The notes below the pieces were generated by a model. That model did not search any database, was not told the origin of the DNA, and saw only the letters and a program-made list of their open reading frames with translations. Source: a virus (lineage: Duplodnaviria; Caudoviricetes). From it: 64,000 bases of DNA. A program made the translations under genes and the position numbers. Position 1 is the stretch's first letter. Every line of letters begins with the position of its first letter. Where the stretch lies: IMG/VR virus record IMGVR_UViG_3300027759_000044; one strand, written 5' to 3'. This document shows, in pieces, positions 9,723 to 33,667 of this stretch.

Positions 9723-9724
9723 AC

Positions 9725-10259: not shown

Positions 10260-10264
10260 CTAAT

Positions 10265-13265: not shown

Positions 13266-15979
13266 GTTACGTTGACGCTATTCATAGCAGGGATGAGGAT
13301 CGTATCTACGTTGTAGAGAGGGATAATAACGGCAAGCGTCAATACAAAGAATACCCTACCAATTACGTATTGTATTATCCTGATCCTAAGGGTAAACATC
13401 GTAGCATCTATGGCGATCCAGTCAGTCGTTTCAGTTCTCGCAAACGACAAGAGTTTGAAAAAGAAAGACGCATCCACTCAAATAAGAAACTGTTTGAAAG
13501 TGATGTACCGGTAGTCTTTCGCTGTCTAAGTGAAAACTATCTTGGCATTGATGCTCCTAAACTTCATACTTGCTTCTTTGACATTGAGGTGGACTTTGAT
13601 CCTGAAAAAGGTTTCAGTCCAACAAGTGATCCATTCAATCCAGTTACAGCTATCAGTTGTTACTTAGATTGGCTAGACCAATGCATTACATTAGTGATTG
13701 CTCCAAAACATATGAGCAGTGAAACAGCCCTAGAAATCACTAATGAGTTTGAGAATACAATGCTTTTCAAATCAGAGAAAGAAATGTTTGATGTTTTCTT
13801 TCAATTGATTGAGGATGCTGATGTATTGACTGGCTGGAACTCAGAGGGCTATGATATACCCTATATGGTCAATCGTGTTACAAGGGTAATGAGTAAAGAT
13901 GACACCCGCAAGTTTTGTTTGATGGGTCAACTTCCTAAAGCTAGAGAATATGAACGTTTTGGCAAGAGTGAAACAACTTATGACTTGGTAGGTCGTATTC
14001 ATTTAGATTATCTACAACTATACAAAAAGTATAACTATGAATCTCGTCACAGTTACAAACTTGACAGTATTGGTGAGATGGAAGTCGGTGAAAACAAAAC
14101 TCAATATGAAGGTACACTTGACCAATTGTATAATAAAGACTTTAAAAAGTTCATTGAATACAACAGACAAGATACGATGTTGTTGGTGAAGATTCACAAC
14201 AAACTTAAGTTTTTAGAATTAGCTAATCAACTTGCACATGAGAACACAGTATTGCTTCCAACAGTAATGGGTTCTGTGGCAATGATTGAGATGGCAATTT
14301 TTAATGAAGCCCATGAACGTGGCTTAGTAGTACCAGATAAAAAACGAAAGGTTGAAAATGAAGAAGAAATCCAGCAGGCAGCAGGTGCCTTTGTTGCTAC
14401 GCCGAAAAGAGGTATGCATGAATATGTCGGAGCAGTTGACATCAACAGTCTCTATCCCTCGGTTATTCGTGCCCTCAACATGGCAGGTGAAACCATCGTT
14501 GCTCAGGTCAGACAAACAATCACTGACAAATACATGCTTGATAAAGGCGTACGATTAGCAAGTGAAAAGAAACGTCACAAAGAAGGTGATGACGCAGTTA
14601 CAGGAAGTATTCTCTGGGAGAATCTGTTTGGTGCATTAGAGTATACAGCTATTATGAACCAAGAACGTGGTACAATTCTTACTGTTGACTTTGAAGATGG
14701 TCGCAGTGAAGAAATGTCTGCGGCAGAAGTTTGGAAGATGATATTTGATAGTCATAAGCCCTGGATGCTAAGTGCTAATGGTACAATCTTTACTTATGAA
14801 AAAGAAGGTGTCGTTCCCGGTCTACTCACACGTTGGTATACAGAACGTAAAGCTATTCAGAAACAAGCTAAAGAAGCATATGGCACTGATATGTTTGATT
14901 ACTACGACAAGCGACAACTTGTCCGTAAGATTTTACTTAACTCAGCATATGGTGCATTGTTAAATGAACATTGTCGTTTCTATGATAAGCGTATTGGTCA
15001 AAGTGTTACATTATCCGGTCGACAGATTGTTAAACATATGATGAGTACTATCAATGAAACAGTTGAGGGTATCTATTCACATGAGGGCAATGCTATTGTG
15101 TATGGTGATACTGATAGTTGTTACTTCACAGCTTATCCTACACTAAAGTCACAGATTGAATCTGGTGCGTTAGAGTGGAATAAAGAAACTTGTATTGGTC
15201 TATATGATGGTATTGCTGAACAAGCAAATGAAAGTTTTCCTGCATTCATGGAGAAAGCATTTCATGCTCCTAGAAAGAATGGTGCTATCATTAAAGCTGG
15301 TCGTGAACTGATCGGTGATCGTGCTATCTTTATCACTAAAAAACGTTATGCTATCAATATCTTTGACAAAGAAGGTAAACGTAAAGATAAAGACGGAGAC
15401 TTAGGCGATATCAAAGCTATGGGTCTTGACTTGAAACGTGCTGATACACCTAAGTATGTACAAGAGTTCTTAATGAATGTACTACAGATGGTTCTTCAAC
15501 AAGGTAAAGGTCGTGAGGATGTGATTGAAGCTGTCAAAGACTTCAAACGCATACTAACTGCACAGGATAGTTGGACTAAAGGTTCTCCTAAAGGTGTAAA
15601 CAAACTTACAATGTATGGTGACTTAGAAGCTAAGAGTAGTACAGGTCGTGCTAATATGCCCGGACATGTTCGTGCGGCATTGAACTACAATTACTTACGT
15701 AGAGTAAACGGTGACCAATATAGTCAAAAGATTATTGATGGTATGAAGGTTGTTGTATGTAAGCTTAAACCCAATCCATTAGGGTTTACAAGTGTAGCAT
15801 ATCCAGTAGATGAATTGCGTTTGCCCAAATGGTTTACAGAGTTACCATTTGATGATTCAGCAATGGAACAAACATTAGTAGATGAGAAGATTGATAACTT
15901 ATTGGGTGTATTAGATTGGGATATTCGTAGCAATACAGATACCAACAGTACGTTTGATGACTTATTCAGTTTCGGTTAA
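13262..15979 (+). CDS. Family B DNA polymerase (T4 gp43-like) with 3'-5' exonuclease
   Basis: ExoI FDIE, ExoII GWNSEGYDIPY, ExoIII YN.QD, DINSLYPS, KILLNSAYG, YGDTDS and KKRY. TTG start overlaps the upstream stop. Confidence 0.97.
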   Translation: MSYVDAIHSRDEDRIYVVERDNNGKRQYKEYPTNYVLYYPDPKGKHRSIYGDPVSRFSSRKRQEFEKERRIHSNKKLFESDVPVVFRCLSENYLGIDAPKLHTCFFDIEVDFDPEKGFSPTSDPFNPVTAISCYLDWLDQCITLVIAPKHMSSETALEITNEFENTMLFKSEKEMFDVFFQLIEDADVLTGWNSEGYDIPYMVNRVTRVMSKDDTRKFCLMGQLPKAREYERFGKSETTYDLVGRIHLDYLQLYKKYNYESRHSYKLDSIGEMEVGENKTQYEGTLDQLYNKDFKKFIEYNRQDTMLLVKIHNKLKFLELANQLAHENTVLLPTVMGSVAMIEMAIFNEAHERGLVVPDKKRKVENEEEIQQAAGAFVATPKRGMHEYVGAVDINSLYPSVIRALNMAGETIVAQVRQTITDKYMLDKGVRLASEKKRHKEGDDAVTGSILWENLFGALEYTAIMNQERGTILTVDFEDGRSEEMSAAEVWKMIFDSHKPWMLSANGTIFTYEKEGVVPGLLTRWYTERKAIQKQAKEAYGTDMFDYYDKRQLVRKILLNSAYGALLNEHCRFYDKRIGQSVTLSGRQIVKHMMSTINETVEGIYSHEGNAIVYGDTDSCYFTAYPTLKSQIESGALEWNKETCIGLYDGIAEQANESFPAFMEKAFHAPRKNGAIIKAGRELIGDRAIFITKKRYAINIFDKEGKRKDKDGDLGDIKAMGLDLKRADTPKYVQEFLMNVLQMVLQQGKGREDVIEAVKDFKRILTAQDSWTKGSPKGVNKLTMYGDLEAKSSTGRANMPGHVRAALNYNYLRRVNGDQYSQKIIDGMKVVVCKLKPNPLGFTSVAYPVDELRLPKWFTELPFDDSAMEQTLVDEKIDNLLGVLDWDIRSNTDTNSTFDDLFSFG

Positions 15980-16056: not shown

Positions 16057-16788
16057 ATGAAAGATAATTTACAAGATTTAATTCAACATACACATGGCTT
16101 AGGCTGTATTGAGTTAATTAAAGTCAGTGGAACTGACACAGAGACAACTGTAAACGCAGTAGCAGAAGATAAATCTGTTATTGTTAGTGGTGTTCTTAAA
16201 CATCCTAGCGCAGAGTTTATTGGTGTATTTGGTATGCCTAACTTAGGTAAGCTAAAAACAATTCTAGGCTTTGATGACTATGATGAACATAGTAAAATCA
16301 CTGTTACACGTGTTAACAAAGACGGGGTTAGTGTACCGGAATACATTCACTTTGAAACAAAAGCAGGTGACTTTGTTAACGATTATCGTTTGATGAGTAA
16401 AGCTATTGCTGATGAAAAAGTTAAAACTGTTACATTTAAGGGTACTATATGGGGTGTTGAGTTTGAACCCACTATTGTAGGCATTCAACGACTGAAACGT
16501 CAAGCAAGTGCTAATAGTGAAGAAAAGAACTTTACTACTAAAACAGAAAACGGTAATCTAATGGTTTACTTTGGTGACCCATCAACACACTCAGGTAACT
16601 TTGTATTTCACCCGGGTGTTACTGGTTCATTGAACAAAGCATGGATGTGGCCTGTTAAAGAATTCTTAAGCATCATGGATTTACCCGGTGATAAGATTAT
16701 TCGTATTAGTGATGCTGGTGCAACAGAGATTGTTGTTGACAGTGGTCTAGCAGTTTATCGTTATTTACTCCCAGCACAAGCGAAATAA
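16057..16788 (+). CDS. Probable DNA polymerase sliding clamp (gp45-like)
   Basis: 243 aa, alternating beta/alpha pattern, directly downstream of the polymerase. No diagnostic motif. Confidence 0.45.
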   Translation: MKDNLQDLIQHTHGLGCIELIKVSGTDTETTVNAVAEDKSVIVSGVLKHPSAEFIGVFGMPNLGKLKTILGFDDYDEHSKITVTRVNKDGVSVPEYIHFETKAGDFVNDYRLMSKAIADEKVKTVTFKGTIWGVEFEPTIVGIQRLKRQASANSEEKNFTTKTENGNLMVYFGDPSTHSGNFVFHPGVTGSLNKAWMWPVKEFLSIMDLPGDKIIRISDAGATEIVVDSGLAVYRYLLPAQAK

Positions 16789-18380
16789 TGGAACAAGACA
16801 ATCTATCAGCAAAACAAAACCCAGATTGGGCATTGTTCTTACCTGCAGTCAGTAGTTTTTATATTTCTGGCTTGGGTAAGCAACGTAAAGGGGAACAGTA
16901 CTTTGACCAAGCACGAATACCTGCTCAATTCAACGGTGATGTAGAGAAACTAAACTTTCTTAATAGTAAAGAAGGTCTCTATTATTACAAGTGGGGATTA
17001 TATAGTGCTGGTCATGCTAACTTAGATACAACCGTAAACGATCCTAGTGAAAGTATCATTAGAGAACGTGAGGCTGGTACGTTTATGTTAGGTGACTCTG
17101 GTGGATTTCAGATTCTTAAAGGTCAATGGCCGGCTGATTGGAAAGATCCTAATTGCCCTAAAGCTATGATTAAGCGTAAAGCAGTATTGAACTGGATGGA
17201 TACATACATGGACTATGGTATGTGTTTGGATATTCCCTCACAATCCTTAACTACCTTTCATATGAAAGATCCTAAAACAATTAAAAAAGATAAAGACGGT
17301 AATGATATTCCGGGTAGTGGAGTAAGTCTTCATGGCATCAGCACTATTGAAGAAGCTATCCGTGCTACCCATATCAATAATGAATACTTCATTAACAATC
17401 GTTCGGGCAAATGTCAGTTTTTAAATGTATTACAGGGTCGTACACATACCCAGTCTGATGATTGGTATGATGAAATGAAGAAGTATTGTGACCCAAACAT
17501 CTATCCAGACAATCACTTTAATGGTTGGGCATTCGGGGGACAGAACAAGATTGATGTACACCTAATGTTAACACGTATGATTGATATTATATATGATGGA
17601 CTATTAGTAGAGGGTAAACATGATTTGATTCATTGTTTGGGTACAAGTATATTAGAGTATGCTGTATTGTTTACTGATATTCAACGTGCTATTCGTAAGT
17701 ACCATAACCCAAAACTTAAAATTACATTTGACTGTGCAAGTCCTTTCTTTAGTGCGGCTAAAGGCTTAGCATATTTCAATACTAACATTGAGCATAATAA
17801 GAAATGGTCATACAGTATGGAAAAAACCGCTGAGAAGAAATCTTATGCTAATGACACACGTAAATATCGTGATGCTGTATTGGCTGAAGGCATCCATAAA
17901 GTCTTTACAGATAGTCCAGTAACTGATAAACTAGTGCTTAAGGATTTATGTTATCGTGGTCAAGGGTTCTTAGGACAACACGGTAAAGAGACCAAGACTA
18001 GTTGGGATACATTAAGTTATACATTGCTTCAAAGTCATAATGTATGGATGCATATGAATGCTGTACAAGAGGCTAATCGTCAATATGAAAAAGATATTGT
18101 TCCTAAGATGTTGATGAATGAGCAATTTGAGCGTGTATTGTTTAAAGATGTTATTGACGAAATTTTTAGTAAGAAAACTAAACAGGAAGCTATTGATTTA
18201 ATTGATGCTAACAGTAGATTATGGATGCAATTTCAATCAGGTAGTCAGGGTATTAGCGGTAAGAAAACTGTCAATGCGTTAACAAAATTTGAAGAACTAT
18301 TTGAAGTACAGACTGAATTAGAATTTGAAGAAGTAATAGAAGATAGCGATGATGCTATGAATGAGGCACTCGGAGAGTAA
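16788..18380 (+). CDS. dpdA: TGT/DpdA-like guanine base-exchange enzyme
   Basis: FMLGDSGGFQ (17094-17111) is the TGT catalytic Asp motif. Also LDIP, LNVLQG, GWAFGG and IHCLG of the TGT barrel, and TFDCASP. Clustered with folE, queD and queE. Confidence 0.75.
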   Translation: MEQDNLSAKQNPDWALFLPAVSSFYISGLGKQRKGEQYFDQARIPAQFNGDVEKLNFLNSKEGLYYYKWGLYSAGHANLDTTVNDPSESIIREREAGTFMLGDSGGFQILKGQWPADWKDPNCPKAMIKRKAVLNWMDTYMDYGMCLDIPSQSLTTFHMKDPKTIKKDKDGNDIPGSGVSLHGISTIEEAIRATHINNEYFINNRSGKCQFLNVLQGRTHTQSDDWYDEMKKYCDPNIYPDNHFNGWAFGGQNKIDVHLMLTRMIDIIYDGLLVEGKHDLIHCLGTSILEYAVLFTDIQRAIRKYHNPKLKITFDCASPFFSAAKGLAYFNTNIEHNKKWSYSMEKTAEKKSYANDTRKYRDAVLAEGIHKVFTDSPVTDKLVLKDLCYRGQGFLGQHGKETKTSWDTLSYTLLQSHNVWMHMNAVQEANRQYEKDIVPKMLMNEQFERVLFKDVIDEIFSKKTKQEAIDLIDANSRLWMQFQSGSQGISGKKTVNALTKFEELFEVQTELEFEEVIEDSDDAMNEALGE

Positions 18381-18389
18381 AAATTATAA

Positions 18390-18947
18390 ATGACTCTACT
18401 TTTAGTATCTAAACCTAATATTGAGTTCAATCCTAATAAACGAGTGTTTGTTAAAGAGAATGTCATATCATCTAAAGTATGTGATGAGATAATTGATTTT
18501 GGAAGAAATAATGTTGTTAAGGGAATAAATAAATACCCTGGTTTATTTCAAATAAGTTTTAAGACATGTTTGTTACCTATGGATCACGTAATACATTCAA
18601 TACTACAAGATGTTTGGGTTGAGGCTAGTAGTTTTATAGGAACTACTGTTGATTTTGTAGAACCATATGAATTAAAACAATATGGTAGTGGTGATTTTTT
18701 TGGTAAACATACAGATAATTATAATAGTCTTTCCAAAGATATTGACAGAAAGATAACAATGAGTATACAATTGTCAGATGATGAAGATTATGTAGGGGGA
18801 GACCTACTTGTTTTAAGTCAATCATATTCTAGGAAAAAAGGTAGTATTATTGCTTTTCCTAGTTTATTAACACATCAAGTAAACCCTATACTGAAGGGCG
18901 AGAGATGGTCATTAATTAGTTGGGCTTGGGGCCCTCAATGGAAATAG
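18390..18947 (+). CDS. 2OG-Fe(II) oxygenase (PKHD/prolyl-hydroxylase-like)
   Basis: HTD, RKITMSIQLS, Y.GGDL, FPS.L.HQV and RWSL.SW. Confidence 0.85.
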   Translation: MTLLLVSKPNIEFNPNKRVFVKENVISSKVCDEIIDFGRNNVVKGINKYPGLFQISFKTCLLPMDHVIHSILQDVWVEASSFIGTTVDFVEPYELKQYGSGDFFGKHTDNYNSLSKDIDRKITMSIQLSDDEDYVGGDLLVLSQSYSRKKGSIIAFPSLLTHQVNPILKGERWSLISWAWGPQWK

Positions 18948-18955
18948 GATTACAA

Positions 18956-19411
18956 ATGATAGAACAACATGAACAAGCAATGGCAGAGAAACGGTCTCGT
19001 ATTAAAAATAACGCATTACGTACAATCTTTGTACGTTTTCAAAAAGAAGGTATTCATAAATACCCAGCGGCAGCAACAGACCCAGCACTTGCTACAGGTG
19101 ATGAGTATGATGTTAGCTTTTTAGCTACTCCACATAGACACATCTTTCATTTTGAAGTGTCTATTGAAGTATTTCACAACGACCGTGATATTGAGTTTAT
19201 TCAGTTTAAAAGATGGTTAGAGAAGCAATATTCTCAAGGCATACTAGAATTGAATTACAAAAGTTGTGAAATGATTAGTGATGACCTCTATGAAGTTATT
19301 GCAACTCGATATCCAGATCGTAATATCGCTATTCAAGTATCGGAAGATAATGAGAACGGTGCTACTATTGTCTATAACACAAACAAACCTTATCAACAAC
19401 TCGCTATTTAA
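18956..19411 (+). CDS. dpdL: QueD-paralogous T-fold protein, DpdL-like (CDG decarboxylase candidate)
   Basis: LATPHRHIF = LxxxHRHxF (19121-19147), DRDIEF, SCEM and VSED.ENGA. Start moved from 18920. Confidence 0.7.
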   Translation: MIEQHEQAMAEKRSRIKNNALRTIFVRFQKEGIHKYPAAATDPALATGDEYDVSFLATPHRHIFHFEVSIEVFHNDRDIEFIQFKRWLEKQYSQGILELNYKSCEMISDDLYEVIATRYPDRNIAIQVSEDNENGATIVYNTNKPYQQLAI

Positions 19412-19422
19412 AGGAAAATATA

Positions 19423-19623
19423 ATGGCAAAACAACAATCTAATCCACGTGTTCAACAAATCTTTGAGGACCTAGAAAACTATCTAGCATTCTGTCAGGAC
19501 TATGGATACAAGTTTGATGAATCAACAATGTATGATATGCGTAGCTTTGCGTATCGTCAATTCACCAAAGCTGTGACTGGTAAGTGGGCTAAGGATCAAT
19601 GGCAGGAAGATGCACGTCCATGA
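19423..19623 (+). CDS. Small hypothetical protein
   Basis: SD AAGGA; translationally coupled to the next gene. Confidence 0.7.
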   Translation: MAKQQSNPRVQQIFEDLENYLAFCQDYGYKFDESTMYDMRSFAYRQFTKAVTGKWAKDQWQEDARP

Positions 19624-20819
19624 GAAAACTGTTTTACATGGGTCTTGAACCCTATAAAGCAAGGTACACTCTACAATTACAAGATTGGAATGAAAGTGTC
19701 TTTAAACAAAGAGGTATTAACTATGTTATCGTTCCAGGAGAAACATTAAGTAATGACCAAGCTATTGTGACAGGACAAGTACTAGATGCTCATGGACGTA
19801 CATACTTTGGTATGAGTCAATTAATGAATCTAGTAAAGATGATGAAGGAAGGTGAGTGTAGTAATGAAGATATTGTCTACTTTGAAGATATGTTTCAACC
19901 GGGCATTGAAAGCCTTCCTTATATACTTAAGCAAGTTCCTACTAATCTGCGTCCTCGCATATTTGTCCGTTGTCTTGCTCAGTCAATTGATCCGGATGAT
20001 TTCGTACATGTATGGGGAATGAGTGAATTCATGGGTCACTATGAGAAGATGGTTGATTCATTTGTTGATGGCGTACTAGCTTCTAATGAAGAAATGGTCA
20101 TGCATATGAAAATTGCAGGATGGAAGGCTCCAATCTATAATATTTCAGGATTAGCATTTGGTAAAGAAGAAGTACGCGGTCGTATCAACAATAACATCAA
20201 ACCATTCAATGAACGTAAGATGCGTATAGCATTTTCAGCACGTTGGGATCAAGAGAAGCAACCTGATTTCTATATGGATGTGATTGAAGAATTCTTTAAC
20301 CGTTTCGGTGAAAGAGATCGTCATGGTGTATATCGTAATGTAGAATTCTGTGTATTCAGTGGTAGTAAATTAAAAAGTAACAATGATAGTTATATGAAAC
20401 GAACCAATGATTTTCAAAATCGTGGTTTGTTAAAGGTTCACGAAGACCTAGATAAGAACGCATACTATGAGTTATTAAATGATACAAGAGTATTGTTTAA
20501 CTGTGCGCTACAAGACTGGGTAAGTAATACAGTTAGCGAAGCAGATAGTTTGGGTTGTAATGTATTGTATCCAGCATATCGCAGTTTCCCAGAAACGTTT
20601 GCGAATGATTATACAAGACTGTACACGCCCTGGAGTGTTGAAGATGCAACAATAAAGTTATATAATATGTTACATCATCCGCATGTAAATCAAGGTAAGA
20701 TTAGTGATTGGACTGATGGTACAATCGATAGAATTTGTGATATCCTAGAAAATAAAGGACAACAGTGGTTGCGTATGGATAGTGATTATCGAAAACATAC
20801 TAGAGAAAATAAATACTAA
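19620..20819 (+). CDS. GT-B fold glycosyltransferase
   Basis: FSARWDQEKQPDF and FNCALQDWVSNTVSEADSLGC.VLYP resemble GT4 C-terminal motifs. ATGA-coupled start at 19620. Confidence 0.75.
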   Translation: MRKLFYMGLEPYKARYTLQLQDWNESVFKQRGINYVIVPGETLSNDQAIVTGQVLDAHGRTYFGMSQLMNLVKMMKEGECSNEDIVYFEDMFQPGIESLPYILKQVPTNLRPRIFVRCLAQSIDPDDFVHVWGMSEFMGHYEKMVDSFVDGVLASNEEMVMHMKIAGWKAPIYNISGLAFGKEEVRGRINNNIKPFNERKMRIAFSARWDQEKQPDFYMDVIEEFFNRFGERDRHGVYRNVEFCVFSGSKLKSNNDSYMKRTNDFQNRGLLKVHEDLDKNAYYELLNDTRVLFNCALQDWVSNTVSEADSLGCNVLYPAYRSFPETFANDYTRLYTPWSVEDATIKLYNMLHHPHVNQGKISDWTDGTIDRICDILENKGQQWLRMDSDYRKHTRENKY

Positions 20820-20831
20820 AAGGAGAAAATT

Positions 20832-21521
20832 ATGTTTGAAACAACTTATGAAAACGAAATGTCATATCGTTCAGCAAGCGAAGTAAACTTAGCAATGGGT
20901 CGTGTTTATGGACACATGAGCATAGCAGTTATTGTATCAATGTTTGTCAGTTACTTTGTGGGCACTAGCCCGGAGTTACTTGAATTCTTTTTTACAGGCA
21001 TGCTAAAGTGGATTGTAATTTTTTCGCCGCTAGTAGCAATCTTTGGTATTAGCATGATATTAGCTACTAACCCAAGTAAAAGTCTAGCACAGTTGTGCCT
21101 ACATGGATTTGCAGCATTGATGGGATTAAGCTTTGCTACAATCTTTGCTGTGTTTACTATGGGTAGTATTGTGTCAGCATTTATGGGTGCAGCCATACTG
21201 TTTGGTGTAATGAGTGGCTATGGTTACTTTACTAAACAAAGCCTGGACAATGTTGGTAAGTTTATGTTTGTTGGACTAATTGCTATCATCATTGCCAGCA
21301 TTGTTAATATCTTTATCGGTAGTACTGTTATGCAAATGGTAATCTCAGCATTAGCTATTATCATCTTCCTTGGCCTAACTGCTTATGACACACAGAAGAT
21401 CCGTGAGGAACTTAGTGTAGAAACTAATGATTCAGCAGAAGTACGTGGAGCACTAACGCTGTATATGGATTTCATTAACTTGTTTATTAACTTGCTACAA
21501 CTGTTTGGTGATAGGAAATAA
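20832..21521 (+). CDS. Bax inhibitor-1/YccA family membrane protein
   Basis: Seven hydrophobic segments; AYDTQKI and ALTLYMDFINLFINLLQLFG. Confidence 0.9.
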   Translation: MFETTYENEMSYRSASEVNLAMGRVYGHMSIAVIVSMFVSYFVGTSPELLEFFFTGMLKWIVIFSPLVAIFGISMILATNPSKSLAQLCLHGFAALMGLSFATIFAVFTMGSIVSAFMGAAILFGVMSGYGYFTKQSLDNVGKFMFVGLIAIIIASIVNIFIGSTVMQMVISALAIIIFLGLTAYDTQKIREELSVETNDSAEVRGALTLYMDFINLFINLLQLFGDRK

Positions 21522-21523
21522 TC

Positions 21524-21718
21524 ATGGCAACACGCAAGAAAAAAGAAAATACAGAACCAACAGTAGTTAAGGGAAATCATTTGACCGTAACTACTTTCCC
21601 TGATGGCAAAACTATGTTAGAATGGGATGACGAAGCATTATTAAAAGAAGTGCGGGAAGCACTCAACTCGGTAGAAGTACCAAAAACAAAACGCAAATTA
21701 ACAAAGGAAAAACAATGA
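21524..21718 (+). CDS. Small hypothetical protein
   Basis: SD AGGA; coupled to neighbouring genes. Confidence 0.65.
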   Translation: MATRKKKENTEPTVVKGNHLTVTTFPDGKTMLEWDDEALLKEVREALNSVEVPKTKRKLTKEKQ

Positions 21719-21912
21719 GCGCACAAAACGATATTGAAACAAGTTTGGCAGCATACAATGCTGAAAATGATAAGTTTAACAAAGGCAACGCAGCCGCTGG
21801 TACACGTGCCCGTAAAGCATTAGCCGAATTAGCTAAAGCAGTTAAGGCTCGCCGTAACGAAATTACAGCAGAAAAGACCGCACGTGCCGAAGAAAAAGCA
21901 AAAGCTAAGTAA
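21715..21912 (+). CDS. Histone H1-like (Hc1-type) small basic protein
   Basis: KF.KGNAAAGTRARKAL.EL....K..R. Confidence 0.65.
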   Translation: MSAQNDIETSLAAYNAENDKFNKGNAAAGTRARKALAELAKAVKARRNEITAEKTARAEEKAKAK

Positions 21913-21917
21913 TCGTG

Positions 21918-21953
21918 CTAAATACAATGTAAGCTACACAACGGTAGCTTACA
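21918..21953 (+). promoter_or_regulatory. Late-type promoter followed by a perfect 10-bp 5' hairpin (folE leader)
   Basis: CTAAATA 21918-21924; TGTAAGCTAC-ACAACG-GTAGCTTACA. Confidence 0.55.
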
Positions 21954-21989
21954 CTTCAAAACAAAAACCATCACAAAGGAAGGTTATCT

Positions 21990-22679
21990 ATGAGTTATAA
22001 TAAAACAAAAACAGACCCAGAGTTGGGTCAACAAGTTCATGAACACTTAGTCAAAATGGGCGTTGAAACACCTACGTGGGATACACGTGGTGCAAATCTT
22101 GATAGAAAAATAAAAATTGAAATCATTACAGAACAATTTCAAAAGATTATGACAACCTTAGGGTTAGACTTATCAGATGATAGTTTAATGGATACACCTA
22201 AACGTGTTGCTAAGATGTACGTTAATGAAATCTTTTGGGGATTAGACTTTGAAGCATTTCCTAAATGCACAACAGTTGACAACAAGATGCAATACAACGA
22301 AATGGTTGTAGAGCGTAATGTTAATGTTCAATCTAACTGCGAACATCATTTTGTAGTCATCGATGGATTGGCTACTGTAGCTTATGTCCCTAAACAAAAA
22401 GTTCTTGGGCTTAGTAAGATCAACCGTATCGTAGAATATTTTAGCAAGCGACCTCAAATTCAAGAGAGGTTAACAGAGCAAATATTTCACACCTTACAGT
22501 TCATCCTTCAGACAGAAGATGTTGCAGTTATGATTGATGCACAACACTATTGCGTTAAAAGTCGTGGTGTAGAAGATACAGGTAGTAGTACTGTTACTTG
22601 TCGTTTAGGTGGCGGTTTCAAATCAGATCCTGCGGCACGACAAGAATTCCTACAAATTGCTAACAAAGGTTGCAAATAA
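21990..22679 (+). CDS. folE: GTP cyclohydrolase I
   Basis: DTPKRVAKM, SNCEHHF, GLSKINR, RPQIQERLT and HYCVKSRGV. Confidence 0.97.
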   Translation: MSYNKTKTDPELGQQVHEHLVKMGVETPTWDTRGANLDRKIKIEIITEQFQKIMTTLGLDLSDDSLMDTPKRVAKMYVNEIFWGLDFEAFPKCTTVDNKMQYNEMVVERNVNVQSNCEHHFVVIDGLATVAYVPKQKVLGLSKINRIVEYFSKRPQIQERLTEQIFHTLQFILQTEDVAVMIDAQHYCVKSRGVEDTGSSTVTCRLGGGFKSDPAARQEFLQIANKGCK

Positions 22680-22876
22680 TGTTAAAAGACAGACGATTTT
22701 TACTAGAACAAGAGATTACCAAAGCGCACGATGAGGCTGCAGCCATGTATTTGGATATTGTCACTCATGATAAAGATGTACATAGTCCAGAGTATCAACA
22801 TCTTAAGGATAAAATTATGAATTTACAGTTTGATCTTAACATTGTAAATCAGTTAATTCACAAAGGACACAAATAA
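22679..22876 (+). CDS. Small hypothetical protein
   Basis: TAATG-coupled to folE; start moved from 22670. Confidence 0.6.
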   Translation: MLKDRRFLLEQEITKAHDEAAAMYLDIVTHDKDVHSPEYQHLKDKIMNLQFDLNIVNQLIHKGHK

Positions 22877-23112
22877 TGGGATTTCGTAAACAAATAGACT
22901 ATAATTCAGTACATCATCAAATCTATATGTCTGGTGTAGAATTACATAGTAACTACAATGATGGATTCAATCAATTTGAAATCAAAAAAGACTTACATCG
23001 TATTAAATGGTTGATTGATGAGATTATGGCTGATGCCCCCACATTTGTAGGTGAGGATGAATTCTTAAAAGAACATGAACAAACTAAAATGTGGAGAACA
23101 CTTTCAAAATGA
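22876..23112 (+). CDS. Small hypothetical protein
   Basis: TAATG-coupled ORF. Confidence 0.65.
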   Translation: MGFRKQIDYNSVHHQIYMSGVELHSNYNDGFNQFEIKKDLHRIKWLIDEIMADAPTFVGEDEFLKEHEQTKMWRTLSK

Positions 23113-23576
23113 TATTTAATCATATTAAAGAACTTAAGGCACAGGGTAAAAAGATTGGCATTACCTTTAGCACGTTTGATATGCTTCACGCAGGTCACGT
23201 TGCTATGTTAAGCGAAGCAAAAAATCACTGTGATTACTTGATTTGTGGACTACAAACTGACCCAACAATTGATAGACCTGATACTAAAAATAAACCTATT
23301 CAAAGTATTGTAGAACGACAGATACAACTTGCGGCTTGTCGTTATGTTGATGAAGTAGTGGTATATCAAACTGAACAAGACTTAATTGACTTGTTATTGA
23401 TATTACCATTAGATGTTCGTATTTTGGGTACAGAGTATGAGGATAAAAACTTTACTGGCCGTAATGAGGGAGCAGGTCGTGCTATACAAGTAATATTTAA
23501 TAAACGTGACCACAGTTTCAGCAGTTCAAGTCTACGCAAACGTGTAGCAGAAGCAGAGAAAAACAAAAATGCCTAA
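23109..23576 (+). CDS. Cytidylyltransferase (TagD/RfaE-like)
   Basis: FSTFDMLHAGH (HxGH), GLQTDP..DRP, ER..QL and SSSSLR. ATGA-coupled start. Confidence 0.85.
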   Translation: MIFNHIKELKAQGKKIGITFSTFDMLHAGHVAMLSEAKNHCDYLICGLQTDPTIDRPDTKNKPIQSIVERQIQLAACRYVDEVVVYQTEQDLIDLLLILPLDVRILGTEYEDKNFTGRNEGAGRAIQVIFNKRDHSFSSSSLRKRVAEAEKNKNA

Positions 23577-24366
23577 AAGAATATTAGTAATGGGTTTACC
23601 GGGTGCTGGTAAAACTTATCTAGCACAACATATTGTAGACCACTTACAAGCAGAAAAGAAAAAAGTAAGTTGGCTAAATGCTGACGATGTGCGTAAGAAG
23701 TACAATGATTGGGACTTTAGTACAGAAGGGCGTGTTCGTCAAAGTTTACGTATGCGTGAACTAGCAGATAATATGACTGAATGTGATTATGTAATCTGTG
23801 ACTTTGTTGCACCATTGGTTGAGATGCGTAATAACTTTAAAGCAGATTGGACTGTTTGGGTTGACACTATCGACAAAGGTCGTTATGAAGATACAAACAA
23901 AGCATTTATTCCACCTGAAGTGTATGACTTTAGAATTAATGAACAGAAAAGTGAAAAGTGGAGTGAGTTTATTGCCGCACATATATTAGATAACAGACGT
24001 AGACCAGTATTTGATTGGCAAAAAGAAACTGTACAGATGTTAGGTCGTTGGCAACCATGGCATGAAGGACATCGTAAGTTGTTTGAACGTGCTATTACCA
24101 AGACTGGACAAGTAGTTATTCAGATTAGAGATTGTCAAGGTTGGCAAGGAAGTAATCCTTTTGCTATTGACCAAGTAAAGAGTTTTATTAAACGTGATTT
24201 AGATATGCTATATCAGGGTCAATATGAGATTCAAATTGTGCCAAATATTGTAAATATAACATATGGGCGTGATGTTGGATATAAGATTGAACAAGAAACG
24301 TTTGATGACGCTACTCATAATATTAGTGCTACTAAAATCCGAAAAAGTTTAGGATTTGGTAAATAA
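23569..24366 (+). CDS. Adenylylsulfate-kinase-like P-loop kinase fused to an HxGH nucleotidyltransferase
   Basis: GLPGAGKT, LNADDVR, then GRWQPWHEGH and ISATKIR. Confidence 0.8.
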   Translation: MPKRILVMGLPGAGKTYLAQHIVDHLQAEKKKVSWLNADDVRKKYNDWDFSTEGRVRQSLRMRELADNMTECDYVICDFVAPLVEMRNNFKADWTVWVDTIDKGRYEDTNKAFIPPEVYDFRINEQKSEKWSEFIAAHILDNRRRPVFDWQKETVQMLGRWQPWHEGHRKLFERAITKTGQVVIQIRDCQGWQGSNPFAIDQVKSFIKRDLDMLYQGQYEIQIVPNIVNITYGRDVGYKIEQETFDDATHNISATKIRKSLGFGK

Positions 24367-24370
24367 AGAT

Positions 24371-24433
24371 AGCGGTCTCGGCGTCATCCCGCTTTACAAA
24401 CTCTGCTGCCTATGCTATAATACAACATAGGAG
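24371..24433 (+). ncRNA. Candidate riboswitch resembling preQ1 class I, plus an SD-sequestering hairpin, in the queD leader
   Basis: P1 AGCGG/CCGCT, 13-nt loop, AC-rich tail, loop-tail pseudoknot options, and CCTATG/CATAGG hairpin covering AGGAG. Confidence 0.45.
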
Positions 24434-24439
24434 AACACA

Positions 24440-24922
24440 ATGGCAAACAAAAAATTCTTTTCAACAAAGACATACAGACAAATAGGGCCTGTCGCATACC
24501 GTCAATGGCGTGCCGACAGTCATTGTAACTTAATTCATGGCTATGCTATGAGTTTTCACTTTGAGTTTGAGGCTGACACACTAGATGCCCGTAACTGGGT
24601 AACTGATTTCGGTGGATTACGCCCTCTTAAAGATAAACTAGAAGAATGGTTTGACCATACTCTATTAGTCGCACAAGATGACCCCATGCGTGAACATCTA
24701 TTAGAACTAGGTAGATTGAAATTAGCTAAGATTACCGAAGTAGAACGCACTGGTTGTGAAGGTATATCTGACTTCTTATATGAATACATTAACACAATCT
24801 TTTTACCTAACTGCGGTAGTGAAGAAGCTAAACGTGTATGGTGCTGTAGAGTAGAGGTCCGTGAGACTGATAGCAATATGGCAGGACGTAGTGGTCATAG
24901 AGAAGATAGAGAGTTTGAATAA
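24440..24922 (+). CDS. queD: 6-carboxytetrahydropterin synthase
   Basis: HCNLIHGY, WVTDFG, FDHTLL, GCEG and VEVRET. Confidence 0.92.
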   Translation: MANKKFFSTKTYRQIGPVAYRQWRADSHCNLIHGYAMSFHFEFEADTLDARNWVTDFGGLRPLKDKLEEWFDHTLLVAQDDPMREHLLELGRLKLAKITEVERTGCEGISDFLYEYINTIFLPNCGSEEAKRVWCCRVEVRETDSNMAGRSGHREDREFE

Positions 24923-25338
24923 TGTTGAAAACAGAAATAGTAGATAAGGTAGGACATACCTTAGTAGACATATTTCATAGGCTTGCATTGTTTGGTATTG
25001 GTGCCGCAACAGTATGGGCTGCCGGTTGGACTTTTGCTGAACTGTTTCAAAAACATCACGCTACAGTTGGTGACCTGTTATTAATGTTTATCTATTTGGA
25101 AATAGGTGCAATGGTAGGCATTTATTTCAAGACCAATCATATGCCTGTCAGGTTCCTGCTATACATTGCAATAACAGCACTGACACGACATATGGTAGAT
25201 ATAATGAGTCATCAGCCAATTAATGTTGTTGAAATGTTAGCTGTAGCCGGCTCTACATTTGTTATAGCAATAAGCGTATTAGTTATTAGATATACTAGCG
25301 CAAAATATCCTAGTAACAATAAAGATGAGGTAGCTTAA
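24922..25338 (+). CDS. psiE: Phosphate-starvation-inducible PsiE family membrane protein
   Basis: LLLMFIYLEIGAMVGIYFKTNHMPVRFLLYIAITALTR. Confidence 0.8.
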   Translation: MLKTEIVDKVGHTLVDIFHRLALFGIGAATVWAAGWTFAELFQKHHATVGDLLLMFIYLEIGAMVGIYFKTNHMPVRFLLYIAITALTRHMVDIMSHQPINVVEMLAVAGSTFVIAISVLVIRYTSAKYPSNNKDEVA

Positions 25339-25384
25339 ATGCTTGAAACAATTTGTCAAATTGTACTATCAGGGAAATATTAAA

Positions 25385-26017
25385 ATGAGTTTTTTAGTAG
25401 CAAATTTACCACCAGTAAAATGTTTTGTTCGTAGAGAATTTCTGTATGACTTTGAGAAAGGTCACGGTGAACTCGAACCTTGCTGGTGGATATCAATAAA
25501 ATCTCAACGTAGCCAAGCATTTCGTATTGAATCATATTTAAATCAGTATGGTGCACTATATGATAAACTTCCATTACACGCATATTGTTGGAAACCCATA
25601 GAAGGTGAACCGTATCCTTTAGACTTTTTACAATTATGGAATAGTATGTCTTATGATATTACTGTAATTAAAAAAGCAATGATAGCAAATATGAGATGTA
25701 AAATTAAAATGAAAGATGGGTCGTGGTTAGAAGGAGAATATCTTTTTACTGTTGATTCCGCACATCCAGATTTTAATACAATAGATTGCGGTCATAGTGA
25801 AGATGTTGAGGATCACAAAAGTTTTAACTTTATTAAATGTGATAATGGTCAATTTGCCGCACAACCAAATAATCGTATTGTTATTTTAGAACCAGCAAGT
25901 AATCCTAAAGAAATGAAGATACCAGATTTTAATGTCGCTACTACTAGATGGAATGTTGAAATGGATCCAAAATGGGACTATGGACTGCCAGAAAACAAAT
26001 GGAGAATGAATGAATAG
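25385..26017 (+). CDS. Conserved-looking hypothetical protein
   Basis: VANLPP..CFVRREFLYD and GQFAAQPNNR; start moved from 25343. Confidence 0.7.
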   Translation: MSFLVANLPPVKCFVRREFLYDFEKGHGELEPCWWISIKSQRSQAFRIESYLNQYGALYDKLPLHAYCWKPIEGEPYPLDFLQLWNSMSYDITVIKKAMIANMRCKIKMKDGSWLEGEYLFTVDSAHPDFNTIDCGHSEDVEDHKSFNFIKCDNGQFAAQPNNRIVILEPASNPKEMKIPDFNVATTRWNVEMDPKWDYGLPENKWRMNE

Positions 26018-26201
26018 TTTAGAAAAAATCTGGGCTAGAGCAACCGGTCATTTAATGGGTAACACCGATGATGACAGGCCTGATGTACCTATTCTTACAT
26101 TGGGTGAAGCAAGGATCGCATTGTTCCTAAAAACTTTCTGGGTGGTGCTACATGTGATAACATGTTGTTTCATTATAGCAAATACAATACATAATTGGTA
26201 A
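26010..26201 (+). CDS. Small membrane protein
   Basis: Single C-terminal hydrophobic helix. Confidence 0.65.
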   Translation: MNSLEKIWARATGHLMGNTDDDRPDVPILTLGEARIALFLKTFWVVLHVITCCFIIANTIHNW

Positions 26202-26204
26202 AAT

Positions 26205-27053
26205 ATGAGTAACATAAAAATTTCAGAACTATTCTATAGTATTCAGGGTGAAGGTAGATATATGGGAGTTCCCTCCGTGTTCTTACGAACATTTGGATGT
26301 AACTTTAAATGTGCAGGCTTTGGCATGCCTAAAGGTGAAGTAAGTAAAGAAGTAGAAGATATTGCCGCAAGGGTTCACTATTATGATGATTATAAAAAAT
26401 TACCGTTGGTCAGTACAGGATGTGATAGCTATGCTTCATGGGATCCTAGGTTTAAGCATCTTAGTCCTGTTCGCCCCACCGATGATATTGTTGACAACAT
26501 TATGGCTATGCTTCCTCACAATCGCTGGATGGATGAGCACCTTGTCATCACTGGTGGAGAACCTCTACTCGGTTGGCAAAGAGCGTATCCAGATTTACTT
26601 TCAAATGAAAAAATGAGAGCATTGAAAGAGATTACTTTTGAAACTAATGGTACACAGGAACTTAGTCAAGACCTCGCAATATATTTACAGAAGTGGAAAA
26701 TTAACAGAGAAAAGAATGCATTAACATTTAGTGTTAGTCCTAAACTAAGTATCAGTGGTGAGAAGTGGGAAGAAGCTATTTGCCCTGATATCATTCGTCA
26801 ATATGAAAGTATCGGCTTTGTTTATTTGAAATTTGTTATCGCTACTAGTGAAGATGCATTAGAAGCAGATAAAGCTGTACAAGCGTTTCGTACTGGTGGG
26901 TTTAGGGGTCCGGTATACTTTATGCCGTGCGGTGGTGTAGAAAGTGTTTATAACTTAAACGCAAAGAATGTTGCTATTGAAGCAATGAATCGTGGTTATC
27001 GTTATAGCGATAGACTACAAGTACCACTGTTTAAGAACGAATGGGGCACTTAA
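26205..27053 (+). CDS. queE: 7-carboxy-7-deazaguanine synthase (radical SAM)
   Basis: ELFYSIQGEG, FLRTFGCNFKC...GCDS, VITGGEP, ETNGT and SVSPKL. Confidence 0.93.
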   Translation: MSNIKISELFYSIQGEGRYMGVPSVFLRTFGCNFKCAGFGMPKGEVSKEVEDIAARVHYYDDYKKLPLVSTGCDSYASWDPRFKHLSPVRPTDDIVDNIMAMLPHNRWMDEHLVITGGEPLLGWQRAYPDLLSNEKMRALKEITFETNGTQELSQDLAIYLQKWKINREKNALTFSVSPKLSISGEKWEEAICPDIIRQYESIGFVYLKFVIATSEDALEADKAVQAFRTGGFRGPVYFMPCGGVESVYNLNAKNVAIEAMNRGYRYSDRLQVPLFKNEWGT

Positions 27054-27296: not shown

Positions 27297-27473
27297 ATGT
27301 ATGAATTAAGATATCTTGTCCAAAAAGGTTTGGATAATCCAAAAAAAGTGTTACAATATAGAACACAAATTGAATTTACCGATTATAGTTCTAAGACTGA
27401 TGATGGTAGATATATATCAATAAAAAAATGGGCTGAATGGCAAAATGTGCCTATAATAGATGAAACAAAATGA
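27297..27473 (+). CDS. 58-aa hypothetical protein (below the ORF-track cutoff)
   Basis: MYELRYLVQK...W.EWQNVPIIDETK; fills the gap and is ATGA-coupled to the next gene. Confidence 0.6.
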   Translation: MYELRYLVQKGLDNPKKVLQYRTQIEFTDYSSKTDDGRYISIKKWAEWQNVPIIDETK

Positions 27474-28807
27474 AAACGTATGATAAACGAATTGGCTTTT
27501 TAGTAAGCTATCAAACACTTATTCCTCATGGGGGAATAGGGCAATTTACTAAAAGTTTTTGTGAATTAATGGATCAACATAATATCAAAGTTGATATTAT
27601 TACAGACAAAGAACCACAAGATACTGAGTTTATAAAATCTATTCCTGCAAATATCATTGCACCATTAGAGTCATTAAAGTATACTGACCATAGCAATATC
27701 TTTATGTATGGTGATACATTTTGCTATGAACGAATGGCTAACTTCCGTACAGCAATTGTAGAAGCACTAGAACATAATCTATATGATTCATTAATTTGTA
27801 ACACATATGAAACAGTACAAGTGGCCAGTAATATGGGGCTTGAAGATTGTATTCAAATCATTGCTTACACACACTTAGAAAGTCAAATTTTTAAAGATAC
27901 AAAGAATCCTTTCTTGTTAAACACTAACGAAATGATGCGTCAACAATTAGAAACATCAGGTGTGTATGTGGGTACACAAAGTAAGTTTAATCAAGTAAAC
28001 ATTAGTAATACAGCATATCATTTACCTATTCCTATTACAGAAAAAGATTTATTAAAAGAACATCATAAGCCACGTGAAGGTATATTATTTGTTGGACGAT
28101 GGGAAGAAGGTAAAAATCCTGAATTGTTCTTAGATTTAATTGAACAAACAAAATTGCCCGCTAAAGTAATGACTAGTGCTAATGGTGCCAAAAAGTTTGA
28201 AGAACGACTACAAAAGATTGGTGTACCCTACGAAATTCGTGTAAGTATTATTGGCAAAGAGAAAGTAGATTTTATTACAAGTGCTAGAATTGCTTTTAAC
28301 CCAAGTACAGTAGAGAGTTACGGAATGGCTTTTTATGAACAACATATTCAAATGCCCACACTTGTATTAGAAAATCAACGCTGGCCTAATAACTTTAATA
28401 AAGATTTCTTTTACACTTGTACTAAGAAAGATATGGCAAGTAAAGCAAAAGAGTTATACGATATTTTTGAAAAAGCAGAGAGATGGTATAATTTAGGTTC
28501 ACTACAACACGCACAGGAACAAGAAGCCAGTGTTTATCATAAATGGGCAGAATGTTTTAGAGACTTTAAGCCTAAACAATCTAATAGTAATACGGCAAAG
28601 ATTTGTAGCGAGAATACAGTAAGGTTACAAGATTATATTAATGATTTAAACCGTAGTATTATTTGTATTGATGATGTGCGTAGTGTATTAACTAATAAGC
28701 ATAAGTTTAGAGTTATCTATACCGATGACGATACATATTTAACAAAAGACCCTAGTTTTGAACCAGAAGAAGAAACAGAAGGTCTATCATTATTTGAGGG
28801 TTTATGA
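27470..28807 (+). CDS. GT-B (family 4-like) glycosyltransferase
   Basis: PHGGIGQF, LFVGRWEEGKNPE and PSTVESYGMAFYE. Confidence 0.85.
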   Translation: MKTYDKRIGFLVSYQTLIPHGGIGQFTKSFCELMDQHNIKVDIITDKEPQDTEFIKSIPANIIAPLESLKYTDHSNIFMYGDTFCYERMANFRTAIVEALEHNLYDSLICNTYETVQVASNMGLEDCIQIIAYTHLESQIFKDTKNPFLLNTNEMMRQQLETSGVYVGTQSKFNQVNISNTAYHLPIPITEKDLLKEHHKPREGILFVGRWEEGKNPELFLDLIEQTKLPAKVMTSANGAKKFEERLQKIGVPYEIRVSIIGKEKVDFITSARIAFNPSTVESYGMAFYEQHIQMPTLVLENQRWPNNFNKDFFYTCTKKDMASKAKELYDIFEKAERWYNLGSLQHAQEQEASVYHKWAECFRDFKPKQSNSNTAKICSENTVRLQDYINDLNRSIICIDDVRSVLTNKHKFRVIYTDDDTYLTKDPSFEPEEETEGLSLFEGL

Positions 28808-29529
28808 AAATTGCATTTTTTGGTGATAGCTATTCGGACGTAGGCATAGAAGAATATAGAACAGGTACTGCCTGGCCTGAAGTATTGACTACATTAGTGT
28901 CGGCAAAGAATTCAGGATATTATGGTGTATGTGGTTCTTCAATATGGTATTCGTATACCCAACTGTTAAAATATATAGATAAACATGATGTTATTATATT
29001 CTGTTATAGTTCTGCTTATCGTTGGCCGTGTTTACCTGATCAGTTATTAGGTAGTAATTATAGGGTACATGAGAATTTTGATAAAAATCAACAGATGTCC
29101 AAATATATTGATGTATATAGTGATTTATTTACTGATGAGTTTTTAGAATTTACAGCCTCAAGTATTTTTACAGCAGTTAATAAATTATGCAAAGAGCGTA
29201 ATAAGTTTCTAATAAATGTATGTTGTTTTGGCAAAGAGATCTGGAATCGCACTCCTACTAACTATCCTGTATTTTTTAATATGGATGAAATTTCAATAAA
29301 TGAAACAGTTATTCAATATGGTAAAGTCGTCACTATGCGAGAAGTCATTCATAATCAAAGTGTCAATGACAAACGCCATTGTCATTTAAACGCTCCCAAT
29401 AATAAATTATTAGCTGAAATATTCAAAGATATTATAGAAAATAAAATATCTAATGTGGAAAGTGACTTATATAGTGAATATGATTGGGTAAGATTTGATC
29501 CACAAGTGGATGAATGGTTTGGTAAATAA
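28804..29529 (+). CDS. SGNH-hydrolase-like hypothetical protein
   Basis: IAFFGDSY, G..GSS and a C-terminal CHL motif. Confidence 0.5.
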   Translation: MKIAFFGDSYSDVGIEEYRTGTAWPEVLTTLVSAKNSGYYGVCGSSIWYSYTQLLKYIDKHDVIIFCYSSAYRWPCLPDQLLGSNYRVHENFDKNQQMSKYIDVYSDLFTDEFLEFTASSIFTAVNKLCKERNKFLINVCCFGKEIWNRTPTNYPVFFNMDEISINETVIQYGKVVTMREVIHNQSVNDKRHCHLNAPNNKLLAEIFKDIIENKISNVESDLYSEYDWVRFDPQVDEWFGK

Positions 29530-29530
29530 T

Positions 29531-33635: not shown

Positions 33636-33667
33636 GTATATATTATTTATCACTTTGGACTATTACT

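Follow-up and report, generated by a model that had tools for sequence, protein, structure and literature searches.

7-Deazaguanine DNA modifications shield phages from restriction and are themselves targeted by newer defence nucleases. In the Cellulophaga phage phiST, which has DpdL and no QueC, 302,000 residues of 2'-deoxy-7-deazaguanosine (dDG) per million nucleotides were found, such that all G is dDG, and measurements of dDG are limited to phiST and two sister Cellulophaga phages, all of the DpdA3 type (PMC10516641). DpdL is defined by the motif LxxxHRHxF, which replaces the CxxxHGH of QueD; the phiST protein was linked to the T-fold/QueD group by HHpred at 99.9%, and DpdL is the predicted decarboxylase of 7-carboxy-7-deazaguanine (CDG) (Hutinet et al., NAR 2023, PMC10516641). 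In the Pseudomonas jumbo phage PA5oct, the DNA is resistant to five enzymes whose sites contain G, and it is restricted by nucleases specific for modified G or hypermodified DNA (PMC12191111). Here we analyzed a gene cluster in a 64,000-nucleotide stretch (the window) of the caudoviricete record IMGVR_UViG_3300027759_000044 from IMG/VR. The cluster is of the DpdL-type 7-deazaguanine kind described in 2023, as a variant whose transglycosylase falls in an unclassified clade and which has its own dedicated glycosyltransferase. It probably constitutes a DNA-modification module that replaces genomic guanine with a 7-deazaguanine formed by a route lacking the preQ0 branch.

The likeness to phiST lies in gene content, as both phages carry FolE, QueD, QueE, a DpdL with LxxxHRHxF and a TGT-superfamily enzyme encoded beside polymerase genes, and neither has QueC. 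phiST differs in having a short DpdA3 (259 amino acids) that is marginally similar to the window enzyme and a polymerase of PolIII-alpha type, compared with the Family B DNA polymerase found here (PolB, 13262–15979; PF00136 E 1e-41, PF03104 E 1.1e-24). It also lacks homologues of three further genes of the window cluster, namely a GT4-like glycosyltransferase, a nucleotidyltransferase and a second glycosyltransferase. Acidovorax phage ACP17, Synechococcus phage BUCT-ZZ01 and the Xanthomonas phages X1 and BUDD share with the window a DpdL (39–55% identity) adjoining a GT4-like gene, together with FolE, QueD and QueE, but their transglycosylase is of the DpdA2 type and related to the window enzyme only at the profile level. 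PA5oct (EST35_0314 to 0322) has, in this order, a polymerase, a clamp-like protein, a transglycosylase of the same clade, a GT4-like protein, DpdL and QueE. It differs in host and phage family and in having no 2-oxoglutarate (2OG) oxygenase gene between the others.

The window belongs to a low-GC (~36%) phage, and its positions 1–30358 form one uninterrupted block on the + strand, on which all genes of the cluster lie. A megablast of the region against phage genomes returned a single short match, and a search with the transglycosylase retrieved 278 IMG/VR stretches, contigs of 231–349 kb among them. Counts of downstream genes given below refer to 48 clade relatives whose downstream flank is 4.5 kb or longer, and counts of upstream genes to 56 relatives with sufficient flank. 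To stand in for the rest of the genome we used ten IMG/VR relatives, of which just one is complete: five large relatives, including one of 348,701 bp rated 100% complete by CheckV, were searched for QueC, QueF, TGT and Pribosyltran, and five closer, partial relatives for QueC only. Because of these large relatives, the complete one included, we take the phage for a jumbo phage of roughly 350 kb; its lineage is abundant and uncultured.

FolE, QueD and QueE together make CDG from GTP. All three were named in an earlier reading made from the letters of the window (hereafter the sequence-only reading), and family profiles bear them out. FolE (GTP cyclohydrolase I, 21990–22679) matches PF01227 (E 3.8e-61) and the NCBIfam FolE model NF006824 (321 bits, above its cut-off) and was found in 47 of 48 relatives. 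QueD (CPH4 synthase, 24440–24922) matches PF01242 (E 3e-15) and phrog_2389 (E 2.4e-41) and is 70% identical to the QueD of ACP17. QueE (CDG synthase, a radical SAM enzyme, 26205–27053) matches phrog_2076 (E 5e-52), with NCBIfam QueE/radical-SAM models reaching 40–48 bits, under their cut-offs; it retains the three cluster Cys and has an insertion of ~36 amino acids before the third. The same insertion, which sets the third iron-sulfur Cys apart from the first two, is common to BUCT-ZZ01, PA5oct and the metagenome contig L091 and is not found in ACP17 or phiST. Pathway knowledge and these family matches suggest that the three enzymes would convert GTP to CDG.

The preQ0 branch is missing. Pfam scans of ~70 window open reading frames (ORFs; all of at least 100 amino acids minus one shadow ORF, plus a few shorter ones) gave no QueC, QueF or glutamine amidotransferase, in line with the absence of QueC, QueF and Gat-QueC noted in the sequence-only reading. 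The only PP-loop protein in the window (12354–12950, +) is a stand-alone TilS N-terminal domain of 198 amino acids (TIGR02432, 123.5 bits against a cut-off of 93.6) with weak likeness to QueC at its N-terminus only. This domain is encoded immediately ahead of the polymerase and was found in 47 of 56 relatives; TilS and QueC belong to one ATPase superfamily, and it may act on a carboxylate such as CDG. That reading had also asked for queC and queF in the rest of the genome, and with relatives in its place, the complete one included, none was accepted. The five large relatives had no match over cut-off to QueF (PF14489), TGT (PF01702) or Pribosyltran (PF00156), and QueC (PF06508) passed its cut-off once, at 23.1 bits against 22 over 63 of 210 positions at the N-terminus, the relative concerned being 67% complete; the five closer partial relatives had no QueC match over cut-off. 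We rejected the QueC-like matches in relatives, which were to 301–316-amino-acid PP-loop proteins matched in the N-terminal loop only, and the QueF-like matches (17 bits), which were located on FolE. As neither QueC nor QueF was found in the window or the large relatives, the phage lineage is, judged by its sequences, without the preQ0 and preQ1 steps. The absence of QueC rules out preQ0 and all preQ0-derived bases.

The ORF at 18956–19411 (151 amino acids, with an alternative TTG start at 18920) is by sequence clearly a true DpdL homologue, for which CDG decarboxylation is the predicted activity. It matches phrog_17812 (E 2.4e-31), and by tblastn it is 53.6% identical to ACP17 gp125 (E 3e-37), 34% to phiST CGPG_00067/gp040 (E 6e-5), 52.9% to the PA5oct protein and 65.5% to that of phage Phosso. 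Within its motif L56-A-T-P-H60-R-H62-I-F64 (19121–19147), L56, H60, H62 and F64 are invariant over seven lineages. The gene was found in all 48 relatives, and in the window and its relatives it co-occurs with FolE, QueD, QueE and the TGT-fold enzyme, without QueC. Pfam PTPS (PF01242) does not match it at E 0.01, which leaves homology to the named DpdL proteins as the ground for its identity. The DpdL family profile retrieved nothing from PDB sequences, and PF01242 occurs in 10% of the members of its Atlas neighbour cluster. The sequence-only reading had described a second T-fold paralog of QueD with LATPHRHIF; the motif and the homology to the ACP17 and phiST proteins stand, and the family membership finds no echo in Pfam PTPS. 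Its further description of DpdL as the CDG decarboxylase of dDG-containing T4-like phages needs correction, in that the decarboxylase activity is only proposed and dDG was measured in the Cellulophaga phiST group, with DpdA3. No later publication on DpdL, or on glycosylated forms of deazaguanine, came up in a literature search.

Following the published prediction, the DpdL homologue would act on CDG, most likely by decarboxylation to 7-deazaguanine. CDG itself could instead be inserted into DNA (giving dCDG), with DpdL in some other role. DpdA3 has been discussed as a possible CDG inserter and dCDG exists in the DNA of STSV-2 (PMC10516641), and the carboxyl would be a handle for later chemistry. 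However, dCDG was seen only in traces, in a virus without DpdL, and DpdL tracks with dDG in phiST; we consider insertion of CDG improbable.

The proposed inserting enzyme is the 530-amino-acid protein encoded at 16788–18380. Its DSGGFQ (residues 103–108, 17094–17111) is taken here to correspond to the catalytic-Asp motif of bacterial TGT. D103, S104, G106 and Q108 are invariant across 38 homologues of 26–90% identity, which rules out a chance occurrence of the motif. Also invariant in these homologues are D148, P150, H282, G285 and D315, and the conserved motifs are D103-S-G-G-F-Q108, L-D148-x-P, N-V-L-Q-G, G-W-A-F-G-G, H282-x-L-G and S-F-D315. Mapping to TGT by motif, we assume that D103, D148 and D315 are the catalytic or base-binding Asp residues, lying in DSGGFQ, at mid-barrel and at the position of the late nucleophile. 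The protein had no match in Pfam (E 0.01), NCBIfam, PHROG or PADLOC, including PF01702 (TGT) and DUF6610 (DpdA4), and its family profile retrieved nothing from PDB sequences. Only fold comparison placed it. The AlphaFold (AF2) model, built on 38 diverse members (pLDDT 88.5, pTM 0.87), drew top ranks that were all TGT (Zymomonas, human) from the PDB with Foldseek, at E about 1e-6 and probability 1.00. With the exhaustive aligner VIA-align, Z was 18.7 for archaeosine TGT, 17.8 for QTRT2, 17.1 for TGT, 16.1 for the DNA preQ0 insertase DpdA (7ui4) and 14.6 for Cap10, against at most 11.9 for unrelated TIM barrels. The TGT-type TIM-barrel fold, which the sequence-only reading had named together with DSGGFQ, is thus confirmed at the level of the predicted structure.

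The enzyme has the TIM-barrel TGT fold, DSGGFQ and the later conserved Asp residues in common with the bacterial Dpd systems (DpdA/DpdB/DpdC) and TGT. It differs from them in the lack of Pfam TGT and PADLOC matches, in a C-terminus extended by a helical region and a disordered tail, and in having no DpdB or DpdC partners. Its family is large, with 833 representatives at 50% identity and more than 7,000 clusters at 90%, and no member of these clusters has an informative name. Homologues in cultured phages are limited to the PA5oct group (33.6% identity), Sinorhizobium phage Phosso and one Vibrio phage. ACP17 gp123 appears by tblastn to fall in the DpdA2 group, together with the enzymes of nt-1 and VH7D, which are Vibrio phages. 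The window enzyme aligns with gp123 by hhalign at a probability of 96.5% (E 8.6e-10) and with the nt-1 protein by Foldseek at E 4e-9, and in reciprocal tblastn the window group and the DpdA2 group do not retrieve each other. The DpdA3 of phiST (CGPG_00065/gp042) gave 47% over 82 columns by hhalign, a Foldseek E of 0.013 and no BLAST match. Since there is a remote profile link to DpdA2 and almost none to DpdA3, we treat the enzyme as part of a distinct large subfamily, shared with PA5oct EST35_0316, nearest to DpdA2 and outside the named subfamilies. The profiles run gave no membership in DpdA1–4 and left the remote link to DpdA2; the sequence-only reading had asked for searches of this gene against DpdA, DpdA2, DpdA3 and TGT. 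The fold, catalytic motifs and gene neighbours, together with the restriction resistance of PA5oct, lead us to predict that the enzyme exchanges bases in DNA and would swap guanine for 7-deazaguanine.

The cluster also holds a gene that the sequence-only reading passed over: the genes it named are real, but this one and others of the cluster went unmentioned. The ORF at 19599–20819 (406 amino acids) has no Pfam match, Glycos_transf_1 included. In one close homologue a precomputed PF00534 match exists, and the same family occurs in 21–92% of the members of its Atlas neighbour clusters. Its AF2 model (pLDDT 75) gave a Foldseek E of 1.5e-11 and VIA-align Z of 23.9 for BshA (root-mean-square deviation 3.9, 333 aligned), 23.8 for PimA and 23.2 for PglA, with both Rossmann domains covered, as well as 21.9 for tetrahydrobiopterin (BH4) glucosyltransferase and 19.4 for T4 alpha-glucosyltransferase. 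GT4 enzymes bind their donor through R-x4-K and E-x7-E; here five lineages retain R215-x4-K220 and [D/E]306-x7-E314, with R215, K220 and E314 invariant. On its predicted structure and donor motifs, the protein is a glycosyltransferase of GT4 type with a GT-B fold.

The distribution of this gene follows that of DpdL. Among 50,697 phage genomes searched with tblastn, homologues occurred in five records only (BUCT-ZZ01, ACP17 twice, Xanthomonas BUDD and X1), in all of which the GT4-like gene lies within ~2 kb of the DpdL gene. The homologues in ACP17 (gp124) and PA5oct (EST35_0317) each lie between transglycosylase and DpdL, and in BUCT-ZZ01, a freshwater cyanophage, DpdL is followed immediately by a gene whose product is 62% identical to the window enzyme. 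The gene was found in 46 of 48 relatives of the window phage. Transglycosylase, GT4-like enzyme and DpdL turn up together again, their order shuffled, in PA5oct, ACP17, BUCT-ZZ01, Xanthomonas X1/BUDD and contig L091, and these three constitute the conserved unit, with a transglycosylase either of DpdA2 type or of the window's type. Because the GT4-like enzyme is so strictly linked to DpdL, it would be part of the same deazaguanine pathway.

Genes that could supply such an enzyme are found nearby. A cytidylyl/adenylyltransferase-like nucleotidyltransferase (23091–23576, 161 amino acids; PF01467 E 1.6e-12), a candidate donor-activating enzyme, is present in 46 of 48 relatives; its RfaE domain II (83 bits) and TagD (57.7 bits) matches are both under cut-off. 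It overlaps a P-loop kinase fused to a nucleotidyltransferase-like C-terminal part (23569–24366, 265 amino acids; APS_kinase E 7e-12, phrog_10255 E 1.6e-48), which has a homologue within the L091 cluster. The second glycosyltransferase (27470–28807, 445 amino acids, weak PF00534) is 39% identical to the product of a BUCT-ZZ01 gene between FolE and the DpdA2-type gene, and its full-length phage homologues occur only in DpdL-bearing phages, namely BUCT-ZZ01 (in the cluster) and two Xanthomonas phages. A GalE-like NAD-dependent sugar epimerase (29495–30358; PF01370 E 1.3e-32; TIGR01179 162 bits, under cut-off) closes the + strand block. The 2OG-Fe(II) oxygenase (18390–18947, 185 amino acids; PF13640 E 2.8e-14) is a variable insert outside the core of the module: 13 of 48 close relatives carry it, and in the others DpdL directly follows the transglycosylase. 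With so few carriers, we rejected it as a hydroxylase that feeds the glycosyltransferase in a core step. Glucosylated hydroxymethylcytosine of T4 and base J resemble the present case, by analogy only, in that a GT-B enzyme is encoded with DNA-base modification genes, but hydroxylation is not a conserved step of the module here.

Some observations weigh against the replacement of genomic guanine as proposed here. The zinc motif of TGT, CxCxxC...H, was not seen after D315 of the transglycosylase, and none of its Cys is invariant. Some clades of its family occur in contigs without nearby deazaguanine genes: the metagenome contig L093 (14 kb, P0164) encodes a 30%-identical transglycosylase with a clamp-like gene upstream, and FolE, QueD, QueE, DpdL and a glycosyltransferase are not nearby. 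Such clades may use a base made by the host or another substrate. In hhalign, the DpdL homologue aligned with QueD at a probability of only 26%, so the T-fold link was not reproduced; of the DpdL and QueD searches that the sequence-only reading had called for, the DpdL side was positive (phrog_17812 and the homology above) and the QueD side reached this low probability. Also, 7-deazaguanine has no obvious acceptor for a sugar. Finally, expression of the phiST or ACP17 DpdL with its own DpdA yielded no dDG, and additional enzymes were suggested by the authors to be possibly required (PMC10516641). As the ACP17 test omitted gp124, which is encoded between DpdA and DpdL, the GT4-like enzyme is the obvious candidate for the enzyme missing from the published reconstitution, and omission of that gene is a possible reason for its failure.

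The end product would be either plain dDG or dDG or dCDG with a further group added by the GT4-like enzyme, and we give plain and decorated deazaguanine about equal weight. If the pathway ended at plain dDG as in phiST, the glycosyltransferases would serve another purpose. This is a possibility, to be held tentatively: phiST reaches its full replacement with DpdL and no QueC, its DpdL motif and gene set are those of the window, and 7-deazaguanine offers no side-chain handle for a sugar, but phiST lacks the GT4-like homologue, and yet every detectable phage homologue of that gene adjoins DpdL. The failure of ACP17 DpdA and DpdL alone to yield dDG also speaks against it. Alternatively, the GT4-like enzyme may add a sugar or an activated group to the deazaguanine or a neighbouring position, before or after insertion, and so give a hypermodified G not yet described. 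The nucleotidyltransferase, kinase and epimerase would then supply the donor, and the second glycosyltransferase may extend it. The exclusive adjacency of the GT4-like gene to DpdL, the donor-binding residues conserved in five lineages, the nucleotidyltransferase in nearly all relatives, the restriction of full-length second-glycosyltransferase homologues to DpdL phages and the sensing of PA5oct by nucleases aimed at hypermodified DNA all favour decoration. Its weaknesses are the lack of an evident acceptor group, the fact that no such nucleoside is known, the sugar genes that large phages often carry for other reasons, and the location of the second glycosyltransferase far from DpdL in Xanthomonas X1 and BUDD; we likewise hold it as a possibility short of an even chance. 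The unsubstituted dDG that the sequence-only reading had predicted is therefore compatible with the CDG set, DpdL and the missing QueC and QueF, but is an uncertain and not a safe end point, because the cluster holds a DpdL-linked GT4 enzyme, a nucleotidyltransferase, a second glycosyltransferase and an epimerase.

A xanthine-guanine-type phosphoribosyltransferase lies within the deazaguanine clusters of BUCT-ZZ01 (L095, 5462–5923) and L091 (5962–6489), where it might recycle released guanine or make the deazaguanine nucleotide. The latter would fit a route by which deazaguanine enters DNA as a nucleotide before or during replication, leaving the TGT-like enzyme a helper or repair role, and the kinase of the window cluster could be counted in its favour. 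No phosphoribosyltransferase (PF00156) was found in the five large relatives of the window phage, however, the enzyme could equally recycle guanine, and the published view is of insertion by DpdA after replication (PMC10516641), which together make the nucleotide route distinctly improbable. It is less probable still that the target of the module is tRNA, or its product a glycosylated pterin, and not DNA. The transglycosylase does share its fold with tRNA enzymes, BH4 glucosyltransferase is among the structural matches of the GT4-like enzyme, and FolE with a PTPS-type enzyme is also a pterin route. On the other side, QueE commits the route to 7-deazapurines, the DNA of PA5oct is restriction-resistant, and all known phage DpdA-type clusters modify DNA (PMC10516641). 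We rejected the pterin glycoside in particular, the BH4 glucosyltransferase match being tied with those of dozens of other GT4 enzymes. Replacement of guanine in DNA by a 7-deazaguanine remains our preferred reading.

The sequence-only reading had placed these genes right behind the polymerase and clamp, which is the order found, and had proposed that modification is coupled to replication. The 243-amino-acid ORF directly upstream of the transglycosylase (16057–16788) has no Pfam or NCBIfam match, belongs to phrog_12062 (function unknown), and as a profile retrieved nothing from PDB sequences. By language-model features it resembles the sliding-clamp (gp45) and PCNA clusters of the Atlas at 0.93–0.95, it is homologous to PA5oct EST35_0314 (E 6e-38), and modelled as a trimer it has a chain pLDDT of 90. 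A clamp-like gene stands upstream of the transglycosylase in all 56 relatives. We regard the protein as a probable sliding clamp. The polymerase ends in F-D-D-L-F-S-F-G, which we liken to the clamp-binding tails of the T4 and RB69 polymerases. Residues 485–530 of the transglycosylase form a disordered tail (pLDDT below 50) with a candidate clamp-binding motif, F-E-E-L-F, at residues 501–505 (18288–18302). Of 38 family members, 16 have F-x-x-[LMI]-F in the tail, and the bodies contain it once; on our reading of the same output a looser L-F motif lies near the end of most of the others.

Folding the clamp trimer with transglycosylase residues 486–530 scored 0.37 against 0.00 for the best control, which the tool grades as weak support. 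When the tool was calibrated, 58 of 80 solved complexes passed, as did 2 of 110 mismatched pairs, and passes at or below 0.60 are wrong more often than right unless the guess was already likely. Runs shared at least 56% of contacts, at a partner pLDDT of ~42; solved T4-like clamp-peptide complexes exist, and part of the 0.37 may reflect likeness to those. Two other proteins have polymerase-tail-like ends: the second glycosyltransferase (L-S-L-F-E-G-L) and a D12-class (Dam-type) N6-adenine DNA methyltransferase at 38283–39227 (+; S-S-L-F-V-Y-S). Several DNA-modifying enzymes may, from these sequences, share a clamp-binding tail. With its tail at the sliding clamp, the transglycosylase would probably act on newly made DNA; the tail and the weak score lend the earlier idea of replication coupling some backing, and we call it plausible only.

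Two membrane-protein genes, Bax1-I (20832–21521) and PsiE (24922–25338), are interleaved with the modification genes in the window and are present in 11 and 1 of 48 relatives, respectively; since each occurs in few relatives, they look like mobile inserts. Elsewhere the window encodes a chaperone/protease set (56043–63794) of ClpX, a full-length DnaK/Hsp70 (PF00012 E 1.6e-258), Hsp20, ClpS and ClpP. Within this region, a 111-amino-acid ORF on the − strand (61123–61458) has a long C-terminal Ala/Pro/Lys repeat like those of histone H1 and other DNA-coating proteins. Two tandem DUF5672 paralogues of ~300 amino acids each lie at 44927–46751 (+), and 8653–10165, 10247–11218 and 33626–34693 (+) hold a ferritin-like protein, a staphylococcal-nuclease homologue, a sigma-70 region 4 protein and a UvdE UV endonuclease. 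The window has no tRNA genes.

What sets the module apart is a transglycosylase clade that profiles miss, a glycosyltransferase found only with DpdL and a possible tether to the sliding clamp. Taken together, these features raise the tentative possibility, which we put below an even chance, that the guanines of this phage carry a sugar or related group added by the DpdL-linked GT4 enzyme from a donor supplied by the nucleotidyltransferase of the cluster, with the enzymes held at the fork by clamp-binding tails. Cultured carriers of the trio are available in PA5oct (studied against Pseudomonas aeruginosa), ACP17, BUCT-ZZ01 and Xanthomonas X1. If true, such a decorated guanine would mean a new hypermodified purine in an abundant lineage of uncultured jumbo phages, as well as in PA5oct, ACP17 and the freshwater cyanophage.

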